From: a virus
Taxonomy: Duplodnaviria; Caudoviricetes
Strand: one strand, 5' to 3'
IMG/VR virus record: IMGVR_UViG_3300032243_000596
Span: 1-64,000 of that record
Length of the DNA: 64,000 nucleotides
The notes under the pieces: model-generated
What the model saw: only the letters and a program-made list of their open reading frames with translations
Database searches by the model: none
Told to the model about the DNA's origin: nothing
Made by a program: the position numbers and the translations under genes
Part shown: piece after piece, positions 4,321 through 38,534 of the stretch
Layout of the letters: each line of letters opens with the position of its first letter
How positions within the stretch are numbered: the first letter of the stretch is position 1

Positions 4321-4968
4321 TTACTTTCCCAAGAGCGAATCGACTTTGGCTTCGGCAATATCTAAACGTGCTTCGACAGAATCCAATGCTGGATCTGCTG
4401 GAGTAGCAACTGCTTGGGTAATTTGTTGAATAACTTCAGGAGCAACTGTATCAACACCAGTGGCTGTAGCAATAACATTGGCAACTGCATCAACTACTGC
4501 TTGAACTGCTTCTGGTGCAGGTGCAGGTGCATCGGCAACGGCTTGAACAATGGCTTCAGTGATTGCAACTGCATCAACAACAACTTCTGGCTCGGCTGTA
4601 ACAACTGCAATAACTGCGGCTGCGACTACGTCGGCAATCTGTGTGTCAGCGATTGGCTCTGCTTCGTGCTGGTCGGTAACTACGTCTGCAACAATGTCAG
4701 CAGCTTCTGCGTGATCTGCACTTGGAGACAATGCAACAACTTCTTCGACTGCTACAGATGCAACATCGGCTGGTGCAGCAACAATAGCGTCAATATGTTC
4801 TTGTGTCTTTTCAGCTACTAAATGATCAACAGTAACTTCTACCAATGTCAAACGTGCGTTTAGTTCTTCTAATGAAGAAGCGATGTCGGGGTTAGCGCCA
4901 TAACCAGCTAATGATGCCAATTTGGCTTCGACTGCTACTAATCGTATTGCTAAGTCTTCTAATCTCAT
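4321..4968 (-). CDS. acidic Ala/Val-rich low-complexity protein with terminal coiled-coil segments
   Basis: start moved to MRLEDL (AAGGA SD, CGTAAATA late promoter at 5025-5032). Confidence 0.75.
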   Translation of the reverse strand: MRLEDLAIRLVAVEAKLASLAGYGANPDIASSLEELNARLTLVEVTVDHLVAEKTQEHIDAIVAAPADVASVAVEEVVALSPSADHAEAADIVADVVTDQHEAEPIADTQIADVVAAAVIAVVTAEPEVVVDAVAITEAIVQAVADAPAPAPEAVQAVVDAVANVIATATGVDTVAPEVIQQITQAVATPADPALDSVEARLDIAEAKVDSLLGK

Positions 4969-5042
4969 AGGAATTTCCTTTAAAGTTTTTGTTTTTGAGA
5001 ATGTGTACCCCATTGGTACATTAGTATTTACGTGTATATGTA

Positions 5043-6059
5043 TTACAATGATTTGACAGACACAAGATTGTCTCTAAATATTTCCCAAGCACGTTCCCAG
5101 GTCCAACGACCACTGCCTTCCCACACACGTTGACGATTCAACATAAGTGCATCCTTGACTGCCTGTTTTAGATCTGTGTTCATACAACCAGTAATGCCTT
5201 CGTCAATGACATCTTCCGGACCTTGACAAGGAAATGCAGCCACAGGTGTACCACAGGCCATAGATTCTATCATTACAATACCAAATGTTTCCCAACGTGA
5301 CGGAAACACAAATACATCAGCAAGGGCGTAGTACTCAGCCAGTTCCTGGCCAGTCTTAAAACCCACAAACTCTATAGCGGGATATCGCTTTTCATATAGT
5401 TCACGCATTGGGCCGTCGCCTACCATAATCTTACGACAGTTGGGATAATCTAGTTCAAAAAATTCTTCTAAGTTTTTTTCTTTGCTGACTCGACTGACAC
5501 AGACCAATGTTTTTTCTTTTGTGCTGAGTTTTTTCCTTAGGGTAGGAGAAAATATGTTACGATCCACTCCACGAGTCCAGGGAATAATATTTCCAGTGAA
5601 TCCGTTTTCTTTTAATTCCCTGACCATTGCATCTGTGGTAGTCAACACCTTACCTGAGTGTTTATGAAACCAACGCACTAAAGGCCAAGTAACGGCTTCA
5701 GGTACACCAAAAAGTTTTCTAAGTCCTTCTGGAAATTTAGTATGATAAGCAGTATTGTACCTATAATTATGTTTGTCAAAATATTGTCTAGCACACAAAC
5801 CAAGAGGACCTTCGGTGGCGATATGGATATAATCCGGATTGATCTCCTTAAATATCTTGCCCAAGGTGCGTTTACGTGCAAGGGTAATCTTGACTTCGTT
5901 GTAGCCAGGGCAATCAACATAGCGGAACCGCCCGGGATCAAGATATACAACACGATAGTTGTCCAGAATCGCACAAGCCTCGATATTTTTGTAGGTCGTA
6001 ACAACACCATTTATCTGCTCCGGTAAGTTATCAGTGACGATCAAGATTGTTTTCTGCAT
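5043..6059 (-). CDS. agt: GT4 glycosyltransferase, Agt-like (diacylglycerol glycosyltransferase)
   Basis: ILIVTD..QINGVVTT, IHIATEGPLG, DVFVFPSRWETFGIVMIESMACGTPVAA; adjacent to plcP-like gene. Confidence 0.75.
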   Translation of the reverse strand: MQKTILIVTDNLPEQINGVVTTYKNIEACAILDNYRVVYLDPGRFRYVDCPGYNEVKITLARKRTLGKIFKEINPDYIHIATEGPLGLCARQYFDKHNYRYNTAYHTKFPEGLRKLFGVPEAVTWPLVRWFHKHSGKVLTTTDAMVRELKENGFTGNIIPWTRGVDRNIFSPTLRKKLSTKEKTLVCVSRVSKEKNLEEFFELDYPNCRKIMVGDGPMRELYEKRYPAIEFVGFKTGQELAEYYALADVFVFPSRWETFGIVMIESMACGTPVAAFPCQGPEDVIDEGITGCMNTDLKQAVKDALMLNRQRVWEGSGRWTWERAWEIFRDNLVSVKSL

Positions 6060-6810
6060 TGTCCTTTTCCTGTGTCCAAGTTATTATTTCCCAGCGCCCG
6101 TCGTGATGTTCCACCAAGGCTGTACAACTTTCTACCCAATCGCCATCGTTCATATAAACAATACCGTCTATAGTTTTTATTTCTGCGTGATGGATATGAC
6201 CGCAGACCACACCGTCAAATCCTCGCTTTTTACAGTAGGCCACAAGGTTCTTTTCAAACTGGAAGATAAAGTCCACAGCTTTTTTGACCCGTTGCTTAAG
6301 ATACTGGCTAAGACTCCAATAACCAAAACCCATACGATGACGGAGCCAATTAAATTTAGTATTAAGTGTAAGGACCAGGTCATATGCTCGATCTCCTAAA
6401 AAACTTAGCCAAGGTGCTAGTCTGGTGATACCATCAAATAGGTCACCGTGCACCACAAGATAGTGTTTGCCGTCCAGACCTATGTGCTCGCATTGGTTAC
6501 ATATTTCAACATTACCAAATCCAATGTTGTATGGCATCAGCGGACGCAGGAATTCGTCGTGATTTCCAGCCACGTATACAACCCTAGTGCCACGCTTACT
6601 ATGACCCAGAATTCTACGGACAACATTGGTGTGGCTTTGTTTCCAGCGCCATTTGTTTTGTTGGATTCTCCAAACATCTAGAATGTCTCCCACCAGGTAG
6701 AGTGTTTCGCAGCTATTATGTTTGAGAAAATTGTTGAGTTTATCCGCTTGGCTATCTCTTGTACCAAGGTGTATGTCGCTAATAAAGATCGTGCGAAAGG
6801 TCTTCTGCAT
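6031..6810 (-). CDS. plcP: metallophosphoesterase, PlcP/LpxH2-type phospholipase C
   Basis: FISDIHLG, LVGDILD, GNHD, HGD, GHIHH, NDGDWVES. Confidence 0.8.
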   Translation of the reverse strand: MQKTFRTIFISDIHLGTRDSQADKLNNFLKHNSCETLYLVGDILDVWRIQQNKWRWKQSHTNVVRRILGHSKRGTRVVYVAGNHDEFLRPLMPYNIGFGNVEICNQCEHIGLDGKHYLVVHGDLFDGITRLAPWLSFLGDRAYDLVLTLNTKFNWLRHRMGFGYWSLSQYLKQRVKKAVDFIFQFEKNLVAYCKKRGFDGVVCGHIHHAEIKTIDGIVYMNDGDWVESCTALVEHHDGRWEIITWTQEKDNAENNLDRH

Positions 6811-6842
6811 ACAATTATTTACGCAGAAGTCTTTTTATTTTT

Positions 6843-6860
6843 ATTACGTTTTTGTTACAG
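6843..6860 (-). promoter_or_regulatory. Pho-box-like direct repeat
   Basis: CTGTAAC-AAAA-ACGTAAT, 11-bp period, upstream of plcP. Confidence 0.55.
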
Positions 6861-6862
6861 TA

Positions 6863-7021
6863 TTAAATTTTCACCACAGTCCATTTTGCTGTAAATGGTT
6901 TGCCTTCGGCGCGGTGTTTTAGTATCTTGCGGAACTCTTCTATACGGAGTAGAGCAATTGCATCTTCATCGTGTCGGAAGCAAGCCTTGTACAACTTACG
7001 AACTAATTTCGCTTGTTTCAT
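6863..7021 (-). CDS. small basic hypothetical protein (52 aa, not in ORF track)
   Basis: [52 protein letters not shown]; AAGGAG SD; CATAAATA upstream. Confidence 0.7.
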
Positions 7022-7096: not shown

Positions 7097-7801
7097 ATGA
7101 ATATAATTATTGCAACACTGGTGATGACACACATCACCATAGTGTGTGTTACACTGTACCTGCACAGAGGGCAAGCACACCGAGGCATTGTTTTCAATCC
7201 CTTGCTAGAACATTTTATGAGATTTTGGTTATGGCTCACAACCGGAATGGTGACCAAACAATGGGTGGCTGTACATCGCAAGCATCATAGGTTCAGCGAC
7301 GTCGACGGTGATCCACACAGTCCACACGTATACGGAATTCAACGTGTATTTTTTAAAGGAGCACTACTTTATAATGACGCCGCAAAAGATAAAACTATGG
7401 TTGATACATACGGTCGTGGTACTCCTTCTGATTGGATGGAGCACAACATATACACTGCTCACAGTAGACTTGGCATTGGCATTCTCTTTGTGTTCAACAC
7501 CCTAGTATTTGGTTGGTGGGGGCCAGTGGTGTGGATAATTCAAATGATATGGATACCACTGTGGGCTGCAGGAGTTATCAATGGCGTGGGACATTGGCTG
7601 GGATACCGCAACGGTACTGCCAAAGATCATAGCCGCAACATTAGTCCTTGGGGTATTTTAATTGGCGGAGAAGAACTGCACAACAATCATCATCTGGATC
7701 CTGCTAATCCTAAACTAAGCCGTCGATGGTTTGAATTTGATATAGGCTGGATGTGGTTGAGCGTGTTTAGATTCTTACGTATGGCCAAACTTCGCACCTA
7801 G
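7097..7801 (+). CDS. membrane fatty-acid desaturase (delta-9/OLE1-like)
   Basis: His boxes HRGQAH, HRKHH, HNNHH; start moved to MNIII. Confidence 0.88.
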   Translation: MNIIIATLVMTHITIVCVTLYLHRGQAHRGIVFNPLLEHFMRFWLWLTTGMVTKQWVAVHRKHHRFSDVDGDPHSPHVYGIQRVFFKGALLYNDAAKDKTMVDTYGRGTPSDWMEHNIYTAHSRLGIGILFVFNTLVFGWWGPVVWIIQMIWIPLWAAGVINGVGHWLGYRNGTAKDHSRNISPWGILIGGEELHNNHHLDPANPKLSRRWFEFDIGWMWLSVFRFLRMAKLRT

Positions 7802-8864: not shown

Positions 8865-8937
8865 TAATAAAAATAGGACCCGAAGGTCCTATTACTGGTT
8901 ACGAGTTCCAGCGCCACTCTATCGTTGTGGTCGGTTA
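8865..8937 (-). ncRNA. candidate small RNA or leader with two hairpins
   Basis: between a perfect TATAAATA (8942-8949) and a UUCG terminator; no ATG-initiated ORF. Confidence 0.4.
8872..8893 (-). terminator. UUCG-tetraloop terminator
   Basis: AATAGGACC-TTCG-GGTCCTATT-TTT; same core as 26866-26883. Confidence 0.85.
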
Positions 8938-8970
8938 AGAATATTTATATTGGTATATATTACACTAGTA

Positions 8971-9345
8971 TTACAAATGAATCTGGCGGTATCGAGCCAT
9001 AGCTCTCGCTCTGGCCACTGCCAGTCTTACAGTAATGTAATCGCTCAATGGTTCGTCAGGATCAACGGGCACATTGACTATACTGGGTCGACGATAGGGC
9101 ACTTGCAGATCCACCTCGTCTGGACCCGGCAAGTCATCATTTTCGGGATCAGTTAAATCATTGGCTTCGATGAATTTCCGTTGTGTCTTTTTTGCGGCAC
9201 GAACAGCTACGCTTTTCGTCTGCATTTGACTCATTGATACGGAATGTCTGGGGTAGTCCTGGACCTGTGCCACTGTATTCGTTTTTGCCTGGCTTAGGCT
9301 CAAAACGGCTGAAAGTGTAAGGGCTGTGACTGCAAGTTTCATCAT
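8971..9345 (-). CDS. secreted hypothetical protein
   Basis: N-terminal signal peptide. Confidence 0.7.
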   Translation of the reverse strand: MMKLAVTALTLSAVLSLSQAKTNTVAQVQDYPRHSVSMSQMQTKSVAVRAAKKTQRKFIEANDLTDPENDDLPGPDEVDLQVPYRRPSIVNVPVDPDEPLSDYITVRLAVARARAMARYRQIHL

Positions 9346-10596: not shown

Positions 10597-10621
10597 AAAA
10601 AAGGTTGCCTGAGCAACCTTT
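10597..10621 (-). terminator. terminator of the tmRNA gene
   Basis: AAAGGTTGC-TCAG-GCAACCTTT-TTT. Confidence 0.85.
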
Positions 10622-10911
10622 CTGGTGGTTTCTGTTACGAGGTATTTCCTACCCTAGGCTGCGTTTAGGCTGCCAATGCGAACTGTGAGTCGTTTGCGTT
10701 TACTTTTGTGCTTGATTTACGGTCATCGCCTACCGAGCGCCATTATCCCTACTCTTGACCCAATCGATCCTGTGTCAGGCCCATTATAAAGTACATTCAC
10801 GTTTCTGATGTCTCTGTTGGCTATATGCCAACCGAATATACTTTATGGTGGACCTGGGCGGCACTGCCCCGCCGTCTTGAATCTGTTTCTTGATAACAGT
10901 TTACGCTGTTA
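10622..10911 (-). ncRNA. ssrA: circularly permuted (two-piece) tmRNA
   Basis: acceptor piece ends CAGGTCCACCA at 10846; coding piece starts GGGCCTG at 10782; 7-bp acceptor stem with G3:U; tag GCA AAC GAC TCA CAG TTC GCA TTG GCA GCC TAA at 10697-10665. The 5' boundary is approximate. Confidence 0.93.
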
Positions 10912-11277
10912 AAATCTAACCAACACTTCTTGGTATACACCATTCACCAGCATAATTTGCTTGTGATAAGCAATACCATTCAAATAAACAACATCTTGTG
11001 GTTGTTGTACAACTACCGGAGGTTGCTGAACAATTATAGGTGGGTTAGGTGGAACGGGTTGTCCATTTACTATAACACCACCAGGTTGTCCATTTACTAT
11101 AACAGTGGGTTGTTGACTACGAGCGATCTCATAACCAATCACTCCGCCTATGATGGTTGGTGCTACCCAATTGCCATATCCCCAACCACCACCATATCCA
11201 CCGTGAAAGTGGCGATGTTGGGCACTTGCAGAAACTGCTACCAAACTTAAAATTAATGCGGAAAGTATCTTAGACAT
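10909..11277 (-). CDS. secreted Gly/Pro/Val-rich protein
   Basis: signal peptide, repeated VIVNGQP. Confidence 0.75.
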   Translation of the reverse strand: MSKILSALILSLVAVSASAQHRHFHGGYGGGWGYGNWVAPTIIGGVIGYEIARSQQPTVIVNGQPGGVIVNGQPVPPNPPIIVQQPPVVVQQPQDVVYLNGIAYHKQIMLVNGVYQEVLVRF

Positions 11278-31053: not shown

Positions 31054-31568
31054 TTGTATCCGGTAATTTGTAGCGTGTATCTTGGCAATAGGCCAAGATT
31101 AGCAGCCATATGTTCAACATCATAACGCCATTCAACAGCGTCACCTGCTCGCCAGCCTGTTATGGCCCGGCCGTCTATTTCAAAATAGTGTCCCGAAGAC
31201 CAATCTTCTAAAAATACTATAGTACGATAGATCCAGTATTCTTGTCCTTGTAGCTTTAATAGGTCTATATAGCGTGTGTATAGATCCCTGTGTGCCGGCA
31301 GTACAGTATTTGTATCCATACGATAGTAACTGGTTCCTATTTCTTTGTAGCCCCTAGCTTCAAATATGCGTATAAAACGCTCATTCCAGCTGGGTTGGGG
31401 TCTACGCATATCACACATAGCACCAGTAAAAGGCCCAGTATAGCCCTGAGTGGTCCATAGAGCTAGACTTACTGGGTCATTAAACGGTTCCAGGACGTAG
31501 TCTAATTGCTTGTACTCGTCGTCCCAGAACTGATTTATGTGTAGTTTATTGACCTCTAGTGTTGCCAT
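31050..31568 (-). CDS. 2OG-Fe(II)/AspH-like oxygenase
   Basis: LPAHRD...EHMAAN...RYTLQITG. Confidence 0.7.
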   Translation of the reverse strand: MATLEVNKLHINQFWDDEYKQLDYVLEPFNDPVSLALWTTQGYTGPFTGAMCDMRRPQPSWNERFIRIFEARGYKEIGTSYYRMDTNTVLPAHRDLYTRYIDLLKLQGQEYWIYRTIVFLEDWSSGHYFEIDGRAITGWRAGDAVEWRYDVEHMAANLGLLPRYTLQITGYK

Positions 31569-32793
31569 AGTGGATTACTTGTACATTGCCGGTTGGTTGC
31601 AATTTACGCCAAGGATCAACAATAACACTGCCAGGTTTGATATCACAGTAGGCCTGTGTATCTGCTTGTTCACCGGTATACTCATATGTGATCTTACGAT
31701 TGTGTGCCCAGAGGAAAATAGCAGGACCGTCAATTGAATCGACAACCTCATCCTTGTTGTCTGCCAGCGGATCAATGTAGACAACAGGCAAACCTGCTTC
31801 TTTAATATAGTGACCAACCAGTGTTGAATAGCTGCCAATACAGTATTCAACATCTGGCTTGTAGGCCTTGCCGTGAATAACGACAGGTAGTCCGGTTGCA
31901 CGAGATTGTTCCACTAGGAATAGTCCTAGATTCTTGGCCTGAACTTCACGGGCGTGCATAATGGTATCAAACAGATCGTAACCTACTTCGTAGTGTTCAG
32001 CTAACCAACGTAAGGCAATATTGTCACGTGGGTGGCAAGCACCTGCATCGCCCATACCTGCTGTCATATACTTGGGTCCTTGCAAGCGCATAGTGCTGCG
32101 AGCCAATGCGTTGGTGACCACATCAACGTTAATATTGCCAATCTTCATAGCAAAGTCTTGGATCATATTAACAATACCAACTTTGGCACTGATGTAGGTG
32201 TTATAGAAAATCTTAATAGCTTCGCACTCATCCCAAGTGCCGATTTCATAACGTGGATCATTTTGCATCATAGTCTTGTATAGGGCAATTAGTTCGCCGG
32301 CAACGCCAGTCATCTCACCGTCTTCGGTACCGATGATGACCATCTCTGGATTGGCCATATCCCACTTGACACTGCCCATAGCAATTAGATAAGGATTATA
32401 CAAGAACTGATGACGCTGGTCTAGCAAAGTAATAAACTTGCTGCGTGTTGTGCCTGGCAATACGGTACTGATCAATACAACCTTTTTGCTAGTGGTAGCA
32501 TACTTGTTGACTTTATTAATGGCATCAATGACTGCATCGTGACCAAAGTCTTTGGGAGTCATATGACTTGATGGAACACTACCGTCGTAACCTTCTGCGT
32601 GTGGTGTAGGTACTGCAATAAAGATCCACTCTGCATTGACACAGAGCTCTTCGATATCACAAACCTTGACTGAGTCACTGGTTCTGGGGTAAATATCATA
32701 ACCCCAGACATCGTGTTTTTCGGCCATAACTTCGGCGCAATCAAGACCTAGTTTGCCGATACCAATAAATCCAATTTTTTTCTTTTCTAACAT
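31546..32793 (-). CDS. ugd: UDP-glucose/GDP-mannose 6-dehydrogenase family protein
   Basis: GIGKLG, AVPTP, YNPY, EAIKIFYN, GMGDAGACHPRD, AYKP. Confidence 0.88.
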   Translation of the reverse strand: MLEKKKIGFIGIGKLGLDCAEVMAEKHDVWGYDIYPRTSDSVKVCDIEELCVNAEWIFIAVPTPHAEGYDGSVPSSHMTPKDFGHDAVIDAINKVNKYATTSKKVVLISTVLPGTTRSKFITLLDQRHQFLYNPYLIAMGSVKWDMANPEMVIIGTEDGEMTGVAGELIALYKTMMQNDPRYEIGTWDECEAIKIFYNTYISAKVGIVNMIQDFAMKIGNINVDVVTNALARSTMRLQGPKYMTAGMGDAGACHPRDNIALRWLAEHYEVGYDLFDTIMHAREVQAKNLGLFLVEQSRATGLPVVIHGKAYKPDVEYCIGSYSTLVGHYIKEAGLPVVYIDPLADNKDEVVDSIDGPAIFLWAHNRKITYEYTGEQADTQAYCDIKPGSVIVDPWRKLQPTGNVQVIHYGNTRGQ

Positions 32794-36933: not shown

Positions 36934-37710
36934 TTAAAGTTTGGCAGTAATCATAAGGTGCCAGCCAAGGGCACGTTCCATAATTTTAAATAGTTCAGGC
37001 GGCATTGCCTCAAACCACGGCTGCTTTACATATTCGTATTTAACATAGTGTTCAATATTCCAGGGAAAAATAAAGTCCTGATCCACTGAGATATCCTTAA
37101 ATCCTGCGTGTCTAAACAAGGTATGCGCTTCATCTTTAGTGTAAGTTACCGCCTGGGGACAATTATCCTGTGCTTCAGGCTGATCCCACCCTGCATCAAT
37201 CAATATATTTTTCCAGCTGTTTTTGGCGTAAAGCATACACTTGACTTGCCCGTCTGGATTAAGCATTCGGGGCAAATTGGCCACTACACGTTCAGGACGA
37301 GGTGCGTGATGGATCACACCAAAACTGTAGATTAAATCAAACTTTTCGTGCGGATCAAATACAAGATTCAATTCTTCGGCGTTGCATTCAATGAAGTCGC
37401 CTGTTAATCCAAACACTTCAAAACGTTGTCGTGCCAGTTTAATACTTTCACCGCTTAGATCCACGCCCGTATATCGGGCACCCGCACGGGCAAAATTGGT
37501 AGCATCTGTACCTATGCCACAACCAATTTCTAAAACTCGTTTACCTGCCCAGCGATCAAACTGGGGAAAGGTATAATTGTGCGGTTCGTTGGCATAGCGT
37601 CGTGCTTCTACTTCATCAAAGTATTCTTGAGTGCCTATGGGGCTAGTACTGTGTTTGATATTACAGGGACGATTATTCCAATATTGTCTTACTTGTTCGA
37701 TGGTTACCAT
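36934..37710 (-). CDS. class I SAM-dependent methyltransferase
   Basis: [28 protein letters not shown]. Confidence 0.9.
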
Positions 37711-38534
37711 TTGTATTGTTTACTTTCAATTGATTCTACAAAAAATTTATCTACCACATAACCTGCAGGATCAAACTCTCGTTCTATGATGGCCTGATCG
37801 TAACGTCCAGGATATCGGTGATGGTTATTATGATAGACTTCTGCTGTATTTAACACTAGCAAAATAGGGTTATTATGACTGCCGTCGCTGGTGGCAAAGT
37901 TTCTATAACTAAAAGGCAGTCGAACGTGTACAAACCAGCGACTGAAAAAACTGTTCATTAGTATTTCCCACACCACTGGCATCATTACAAAGAATAGGGC
38001 AAATTGCCAATCAATGATCAAACTGACTGTGATCAGTATTGCCCATATGGCCAAGTAATTATCGGTGACAAATCTGGCGTGGGGATCCTGCATCACATCA
38101 TCCACTGTGGACCAACGTACCCGGCGACTTAAAAACCAACTGGGAGATCTTGTGGTCCATAAAAATATGGTGTGCCAGAATCCATCCACAGGACTGTGCA
38201 TATCGTGCTGTAAATCACTGTGCTTGTGATGATGTCTGTGTACCAATGCACTGATCGCAGGGTCTGCTTCGCCTATTAGAACACTGACCCAACATAGGAA
38301 AATGTGTTTGCGTCGTGTGGTCTTAAAACTTTTATGACTAAAGTATCTGTGTAAACCAATGCCGTTGGCAACCAGTGTTAGTATTCTATAGTATAGATAT
38401 GAATACAGCAACAGGATCCACTCGTTGGATAGGTAGCAATGTATGATGCCACACACAAAAGCCATCATACAACATATTTTTAATATGAATAGGCCTTTGG
38501 TATTGTTCATCTGGTTCTTAGTTGTTGGATCCAA
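37704..38534 (-). CDS. second fatty-acid desaturase-family protein
   Basis: HRYFSH, HRHHH, HNNHH. Confidence 0.8.

Follow-up and report, generated by a model that had tools for sequence, protein, structure and literature searches.

The closest described systems to the locus reported here are the PlcP-Agt operons of bacteria, known from Sinorhizobium meliloti (SMc00171), Phaeobacter (MED193_17359), the SAR11 strain HTCC7211 (PB7211_983 and PB7211_960), Pseudomonas aeruginosa (PA3219 and PA3218), Methylosinus OB3b and Burkholderia cenocepacia. In bacteria the plcP operons are under Pho control (PMC4796936, PMC8528852), and Jones et al. demonstrated by genetics and lipidomics that PA3219 and PA3218 make monoglucosyldiacylglycerol (MGDG) under phosphate stress, the product of Agt1 (PA3218) being MGDG only and that of Agt2 glucuronic acid diacylglycerol (GADG) only (PMC8528852). 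Here we describe two overlapping genes, plcP and an agt-like glycosyltransferase gene, found at positions 5043-6860 of a 64,000-nucleotide (nt) stretch of phage DNA, called the window from here on, which is the first 64 kb of the 74,264-bp IMG/VR virus record IMGVR_UViG_3300032243_000596. Judging from the sequences, we consider it fairly probable that in these two genes the phage has its own version of the plcP-agt operon by which bacteria renovate their lipids, placed under the phosphate-starvation control of the host and used for phosphorus scavenging. In the literature on PlcP or LpxH2 in connection with phage, virus or auxiliary metabolic gene (AMG), no virus-encoded PlcP was described and no paper on PlcP as an AMG was found, the search being partly masked by papers on the papain-like protease; this agrees with the preliminary description of this DNA, which knew of no characterised viral plcP-agt system.

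A second comparison is offered by the phosphate-stress genes that phages are known to carry. These genes, pstS, phoA and phoH, act on uptake, and Zeng and Chisholm reportedly found in 2012 that cyanophage pstS and phoA are controlled by the PhoBR system of the host. The likeness lies in the fact that host-derived genes of the Pho regulon are carried by a phage, apparently under the starvation regulator of the host, and the clade to which the window belongs also has pstS behind the same box. The difference lies in the chemistry, since the module of the window is predicted to remove and replace the lipid head group and not to act on uptake or on extracellular ester hydrolysis, and also in the hosts, which are probably heterotrophic Betaproteobacteria and not cyanobacteria.

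PlcP and its partner glycosyltransferase

The first gene, plcP (6031-6810, minus strand), encodes a protein of 259 amino acids (aa) which, on the basis of its Pfam family (Metallophos), its identity to known proteins, a tree, motifs and a structural model, is a PlcP-type metallophosphoesterase with an LpxH-like fold and a predicted phospholipase C. Its 3' end shares 29 nt with the start of the second gene (5043-6059, minus strand), which belongs to glycosyltransferase family 4 (GT4), and the coordinates on the minus strand therefore confirm the overlap with an Agt-type GT4 gene that had been claimed for this locus. The range 5043-6860 also covers the promoter, with a TAAATA element at 6816-6821 and a repeat box at 6843-6859. 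In an alignment with characterised PlcP and LpxH proteins, residues 82-85 read GNHD, as opposed to GNRD in LpxH, and the C-terminal tail N-D-G-D-W-V-E-S-C-T-A was found to be common to the window protein and the characterised PlcPs; both the GNHD signature and the GDWVES tail of the preliminary description are thus seen in the alignment. The metal-ligand set of a metallophosphoesterase is complete (D12, H14, D42, N83, H121, H205 and H207, invariant in two alignments), and H84 and D85 are invariant across 80 PlcP-type sequences.

Over its full length the window protein is 54% identical to P. aeruginosa PlcP PA3219 (266 bits) and 47% identical to S. meliloti SMc00171. These values are as high as the identity of the two characterised proteins to each other, 46-47% (PMC8528852). 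The reference sequences of PA3219 and SMc00171 were present in the plasmid collection as mislabelled pieces of chromosome. The P. aeruginosa match adjoins a GT4 gene and cyaB and is the PA3219-PA3218 pair, and the S. meliloti match, which lies beside sinR and sinI, was taken to be SMc00171 from the locus numbering.

The second gene encodes a GT4 protein of 338 aa, a predicted diacylglycerol glycosyltransferase, as suggested by its GT4 domains (Glycos_transf_1 and Glyco_transf_4; PF00534, PF13692 and PF13439), by its gene order and by a 38% identity to Agt1 (PA3218) over 334 residues (E 3e-81). This full-length homology, together with the domains and an E-x7-E motif (ETFGIVMIE), bears out the earlier assignment to the Agt type. 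The weak, sub-threshold NCBIfam match profile of the window protein equals that of PA3218, and the proteins closest to it in the plasmid collection are encoded by GT4 genes that adjoin plcP, in Sphingomonas, Roseomonas, Ralstonia, Pseudomonas and Methylobacterium. When the esterase was used to retrieve bacterial loci, 22 of the 34 genuine ones showed a GT4 homologue directly downstream of plcP on the same strand, an order that Sebastian et al. call "type 2" of plcP-agt (PMC4796936). The sugar donor is not readable from the sequence of the GT4, and its role as an Agt is a predicted one.

The phage pair shares with the bacterial operons the two families, their order, their orientation and, apparently, a Pho-box-type repeat, with identities (54%, 47% and 38%) as high as those among the characterised members, and its description as a phage version of the bacterial pair is supported. 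It differs from them in being virus-encoded, in the overlap of plcP and agt, in a TAAATA -10 element, in a near-leaderless mRNA and in the fact that sister phages swap the GT4 for an unrelated glycosyltransferase of family 2 (GT2) of 239 aa.

The preliminary description had also proposed that a UDP-glucose dehydrogenase in the window could supply UDP-glucuronate, a proposal that is not supported. The candidate (31546-32793) is a divergent nucleotide-sugar dehydrogenase which stays below the curated cut-offs (124 bits, where 190 would be required) and reaches only about 50-54 bits with solved UDP-glucose dehydrogenases; it lies 25 kb away, in a separate, overlap-coupled operon with unrelated enzymes, with no tie to the GT4.

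Esterases closely related to that of the window, with 80-90% identity, were found on more than 596 IMG/VR contigs, a number to be read as a lower bound, and 80 viral loci were sampled from them. The CheckV completeness of the 74,264-bp record, 21%, implies a full genome of about 350 kb, and some of the relatives are genomes of 322-360 kb, 98-100% complete and in one case with terminal repeats. A glycosyltransferase gene follows plcP on the same strand in 79 of the 80 sampled loci, and the 80th ends just past plcP. The median ratio of nonsynonymous to synonymous substitution rates (dN/dS) is 0.045 for plcP, 0.146 for the GT4 and 0.068 for the GT2, with synonymous sites near saturation, so that all three genes are under strong purifying selection. 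Since none of the sampled relatives that extend downstream lacks the pair, and since dN/dS is low, the two genes are not a chance pair of open reading frames (ORFs).

The glycosyltransferase after plcP is of the GT4 type in 31 of the sampled viral loci and the 239-aa GT2 in 48. This alternative protein (loci L004 to L007, L020 to L035 and others) matches Pfam GT2 and GT21 and, below threshold, an "arsenosugar / mftF-like" NCBIfam model. As regards its origin and acceptor, a search of the protein atlas returned only generic GT2 clusters, and no homologue was found beside bacterial plcP. The GT2 seems to be interchangeable with the GT4 as the second step of the module. Between plcP and the GT4, a glutamate ligase of the RimK family with an ATP-grasp fold (213 bits) was observed in several relatives (L015:6895-7785, and similar cases). 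The flanking genes vary among the relatives and include AhpCD, a desaturase, BPL_N, superoxide dismutase (SOD), an Ala-rich protein and the RimK-like ligase.

The Pho-box-like promoter and its probable regulator

When the regions upstream of plcP were aligned among the relatives, a direct repeat, TGTMAY-N5-TGTMAY, was found regardless of which gene lies upstream. The window carries at this place TGTAAC-aaaaa-CGTAAT (6843-6859, minus strand), a Pho-box-like repeat with one mismatch to the consensus, followed after 21 nt by a TAAATA element resembling a -10 box (6816-6821, minus strand), which lies 5 nt before the ATG of plcP. The evidence for the box is comparative and comes from the relatives. 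An exact repeat is located 35-58 nt before the plcP start in 32 of 70 non-redundant loci (P ~3e-62), while just 49 exact copies exist in the 1.47 Mb searched; the spacing between repeat and TAAATA is 11 nt in 31 of these 49 copies and 21-22 nt in 15. Each of five complete genomes of 322-360 kb has 0-2 occurrences of the composite motif and 0 of the reversed control pattern. The composite sites of the complete genomes precede plcP, the gene for an Ala-rich protein and, in one genome, a PstS gene (391 bits, cut-off 339).

The same type of promoter is frequent at the phage pstS genes: in 45 of 59 non-redundant loci an exact box stands no more than 150 nt upstream of the gene (P ~1e-78). In 14 of 80 fetched pstS loci, moreover, pstS and the plcP-glycosyltransferase pair are on the same strand and at most about 3 kb apart. 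A homologue of the esterase adjoins pstS also in the unrelated pelagiphage Mosig. The link with the phosphate-starvation system, drawn in the preliminary description from the bacterial pair, is consequently stronger than its author knew, because phage pstS has the same Pho-box-type promoter and because pstS adjoins plcP in relatives. The boxes upstream of bacterial plcP are more degenerate, with 2-6 mismatches (4 in the case of PA3219), a comparison to be taken as qualitative only.

In PhoB-dependent promoters of E. coli an activator site replaces the -35 element, 10-11 nt before the -10. By its spacing, the phage box appears to sit in the same way as an activator site in the place of the -35, and PhoB is the likely factor binding it. 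It was also observed that the start codon of plcP follows TAAATA by 0-8 nt in the majority of relatives and by 5 nt in the window (6808-6821, minus strand), which implies an mRNA that would be leaderless or nearly so; pstS, unlike plcP, has behind the same type of promoter a leader with a Shine-Dalgarno site.

From these data we infer the course of events, including the catalytic activity, the substrates, the sugar, the occupation of the box by PhoB and the benefit for the phage. In a phosphate-starved host, activated PhoB would bind the repeat at the -35 position and switch on the overlapping plcP and agt, an operon that is probably under the phosphate-starvation control of the host. PlcP, presumably Mn-dependent and provided with a helical lipid-binding lid, would remove the phospho-head group from host glycerophospholipids and leave diacylglycerol, which the GT4 would glycosylate with a UDP-sugar, the resulting phosphorus-free glycolipid keeping the membrane intact. 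The freed phospho-head groups could then feed the phosphate pool needed for replication of the 350-kb genome (7 x 10^5 phosphorus atoms for each copy).

Several observations weigh against this interpretation. In the window itself the plcP box combines one mismatch with the longer N21 spacing, and the window alone contains 8 copies of the motif where 7.2 are expected, that is, no more than by chance. Most half-sites of the clade are TGTAAY and not the canonical TGTCAY, so that an activator of the phage or another regulator of the OmpR family is possible. PlcP yields phospho-head groups and not free phosphate, and a phosphatase is also needed; none was identified in the window, and neither a phosphatase nor pstS was found on the whole 74-kb contig. 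The module is accessory, plcP being absent from five related records picked via pstS, one of them 98% complete. Finally, there is a single clue to the host, a tmRNA of betaproteobacterial type. This permuted, two-piece transfer-messenger RNA (10597-10964, minus strand) matches the betaproteobacterial model RF01850 with 114 bits (gathering score 84), and RF04321 also matches.

These points leave some room for an explanation in which the chemistry is the same and the aim is a change of the envelope, such as superinfection exclusion, receptor masking or stabilisation of the membrane during the long infection of a jumbo phage, with the box bound by a regulator of the phage or by another one of the host. 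We judge this explanation unlikely, even if it deserves more attention than any other alternative. In its favour, the membrane proteins affected by lipid renovation in P. aeruginosa include receptors of phages (reviewed in PMC9804370), the neighbours of the module are membrane and stress genes (a DesA-type desaturase, AhpC and AhpD, with SOD in relatives), and TGTAAY half-sites predominate. However, the same box with the same spacing precedes pstS, the archetypal gene of the Pho regulon, in the large majority of phage loci, and pstS often adjoins plcP; the distance of 10-11 nt between box and -10-like element is like that of PhoB-dependent promoters; and so few composite sites per genome are unlike a general temporal class of promoters. 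Phosphorus scavenging under host control is for us the better supported function, and the two consequences put forward in the preliminary description, a supply of phosphorus for phage DNA and an alteration of receptors, are both effects that the module may have.

Distinction from LpxH and from bacterial DNA

The viral homologues of the esterase are currently filed under another name. The automatic annotations of the Joint Genome Institute (JGI) and GenBank call them LpxH, and AMG surveys place viral "lpxH" under lipopolysaccharide (LPS) biosynthesis (PMC10653327, PMC9611531). According to these names the esterase would be the UDP-2,3-diacylglucosamine diphosphatase of lipid A synthesis, and the glycosyltransferase would act on LPS. 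The nearest solved fold is in fact that of LpxH. The AlphaFold model of the window protein (predicted local distance difference test score, pLDDT, 90.4) has the LpxH architecture, with a calcineurin-like core and an inserted helical lid, and its top 25 fold matches in the PDB are all LpxH entries, with TM-scores of about 0.56-0.62 at an identity of 17-20%. On the model and the sequence together, the window protein is best described as having the LpxH fold and belonging to a different family.

At the level of sequence the identity with LpxH is rejected by several lines of evidence, and we consider it very improbable. Both curated LpxH equivalog models miss their cut-offs by far on the window protein (NF003743, 49 bits with a cut-off of 134; TIGR01854, 39 bits with a cut-off of 190), and PA3219 and SMc00171 fall below the LpxH cut-offs with the same pattern. 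The best sequence match among solved structures is P. aeruginosa LpxH, with just 22.9 bits, compared with the 266 bits obtained with the PlcP of the same species. Four gammaproteobacterial genomes that carry a PlcP homologue have a true LpxH elsewhere (250-345 bits), and the partner GT4 resembles Agt1 and not the glycosyltransferases of LPS. In a tree of 128 rows, rooted on five LpxHs, a long branch (support 100) separates LpxH from all other sequences. The viral proteins form a monophyletic clade (support 99) nested among bacterial PlcP-type proteins, with PA3219 in the enclosing clade and SMc00171 in its sister; the tree against PlcP and LpxH references that had been suggested as a check hence places the window protein on the PlcP side, and a clustering with LpxH was not seen. 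What the two families have in common is the core fold with its helical lid, the metal ligands and, for the viral copies, the filing name. They differ in the low identity, in GNRD, which the window protein replaces by GNHD, in the sequence of the lid, in the C-terminal motif, in the clade and in the curated thresholds.

The homologues from cultured phages bear the same name. Only two were found, in the pelagiphage Mosig (Pelagibacter phage Mosig EXVC030M, 48% identity) and in Synechococcus phage S-SRM01 (36%), and both are labelled as a putative UDP-2,3-diacylglucosamine hydrolase. They are homologues on the PlcP side of the tree; their carriers differ from the phages of the window's clade in being cultured, T4-like and with other hosts. 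Neither gene has an adjoining glycosyltransferase, and the gene of Mosig is divergent from pstS.

The contig is phage DNA, as is evident from genes for an endolysin, a phage-type exonuclease and virion proteins (PHROGs) and from the complete relatives of 322-360 kb; an ATP-dependent DNA ligase, a ribonucleotide reductase and UvdE are further genes of the window. A search for the capsid family of nucleocytoplasmic large DNA viruses (NCLDV), as would indicate a giant virus of eukaryotes, gave no match and is uninformative, since the controls likewise gave none, and a search of the 74-kb fragment for the terminase family also gave no match. The closest true bacterial proteins to the viral esterases, mostly alphaproteobacterial, are 50-57% identical. 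That the two genes are bacterial DNA, introduced by mis-assembly or mis-classification, or a recent passenger with no role in the phage, is hardly credible: the proteins are bacterial in type and six close copies sit in metagenome-assembled genomes (MAGs) named Haliscomenobacter, Polynucleobacter, Fischerella, Gammaproteobacteria and Bacteroidia, but these six are mis-binned phage DNA contaminating public MAGs, because their contigs have phage neighbours and span unrelated phyla, and the endolysin, exonuclease, virion, DNA ligase and ribonucleotide reductase genes of the window, the 98-100% completeness of relatives (one with terminal repeats), the monophyly of the viral clade at such a distance from the nearest bacteria, and the saturation of synonymous sites in proteins that are still 80-90% identical all speak against it.

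Neighbouring genes, a structured RNA and the meaning of the module

On the minus strand, plcP and the GT4 are followed downstream by genes for an Ala/Val-rich protein, for AhpC and AhpD and for an ATP-dependent DNA ligase, and the divergent neighbours on the plus strand encode a BPL_N/GATase-like protein and a desaturase of the DesA family. An unannotated, conserved ORF of 52 aa (6863-7021, minus strand) lies just ahead of the plcP promoter and is 67% identical by tblastn to a 52-aa gene that precedes plcP in about 40% of the relatives.

The gene of the acidic Ala/Val-rich protein (4321-5013, minus strand) has a promoter of its own, made of a second Pho-box-like repeat with one mismatch (TGTCAA-atcat-TGTAAT, 5042-5058, minus strand), an N11 spacer and TAAATA (5025-5030, minus strand). 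Its likely start is M16 (4968), after an AAAGGA Shine-Dalgarno site. Exact boxes precede the homologues in six sampled relatives and in two complete genomes, and on this comparison the gene appears to be regulated together with plcP and pstS. Its acidic product has about 215-230 aa and coiled-coil-like ends, and no family was found for it in Pfam, NCBIfam or the protein atlas.

The divergent neighbour (7097-7801, plus strand) is a membrane fatty-acid desaturase of the DesA family (Pfam FA_desaturase; NF049918, 382 bits with a cut-off of 400), which covers positions 8-240 of the 385 of the model and probably starts at the ATG at 7097 and not at the TTG at 7013. It has a plain TAAATA promoter with no box, and it provides a lipid context without being part of the module shown here. 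A second, divergent desaturase was noticed at 37704-38534 (minus strand), adjoining an S-adenosylmethionine (SAM) methyltransferase weakly similar to cyclopropane synthase and fatty-acid methyltransferase. Judging from these genes, the phage may edit the acyl chains of the host as well.

Elsewhere in the window (8870-8975, minus strand), an exact Pho-like box (8959-8975) with TAAATA precedes a structured RNA of about 70 nt, which is followed by an intrinsic terminator and two small membrane-protein genes (45 and 82 aa). When 51 distinct copies of the RNA were aligned, helix P1 was seen to covary (CG, AU, GU and GC, the three variable pairs having no unpaired cell), P2 (CUGG/CCAG) was invariant, and a loop-loop pair covaried (AU in 30 copies, CG in 8, GC in 6, GU in 6 and UG in 1), being unpaired in 0 of the 51. 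Kissing loops ACGA/UCGU, considered for this element, were rejected as not general, the loop-loop pair that covaries being a different one. The copies are found after the stop codons of pstS, of the plcP-glycosyltransferase pair or of the Ala-rich gene, or directly after a box promoter, and in five relatives the RNA occurs in the plcP leader with no terminator. No Rfam family matches it. In the Pho units of these phages it may act as an attenuator or in the manner of a riboswitch.

Lakes and parts of the ocean are often limited by phosphate, and each particle of a jumbo phage requires much more phosphorus than one of an ordinary phage. Only tentatively, and with somewhat less than even confidence, do we extend our interpretation of the two genes to a wider picture, in which a widespread clade of lake phages of about 350 kb would turn the membrane phospholipid of the host into a source of phosphorus at the command of the host's own starvation regulator. 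Such phages would possess a small Pho regulon consisting of pstS, plcP with the interchangeable GT4 or GT2, the Ala-rich protein and a new pseudoknotted RNA placed before terminators, which may gate read-through.

If the interpretation is true, a virus would take phosphorus from the membrane of its host and rebuild that membrane with glycolipid, and viruses would thereby reprogram host metabolism in a novel way. The swap of membrane lipids may also alter the susceptibility of the host to other phages. For metagenomes, entries of viral "lpxH / LPS biosynthesis" would then have to be reread, considering the number of IMG/VR contigs that carry close relatives, and the counts of viral "lpxH" in metagenome surveys would become a marker of virus-driven recycling of lipid phosphorus.

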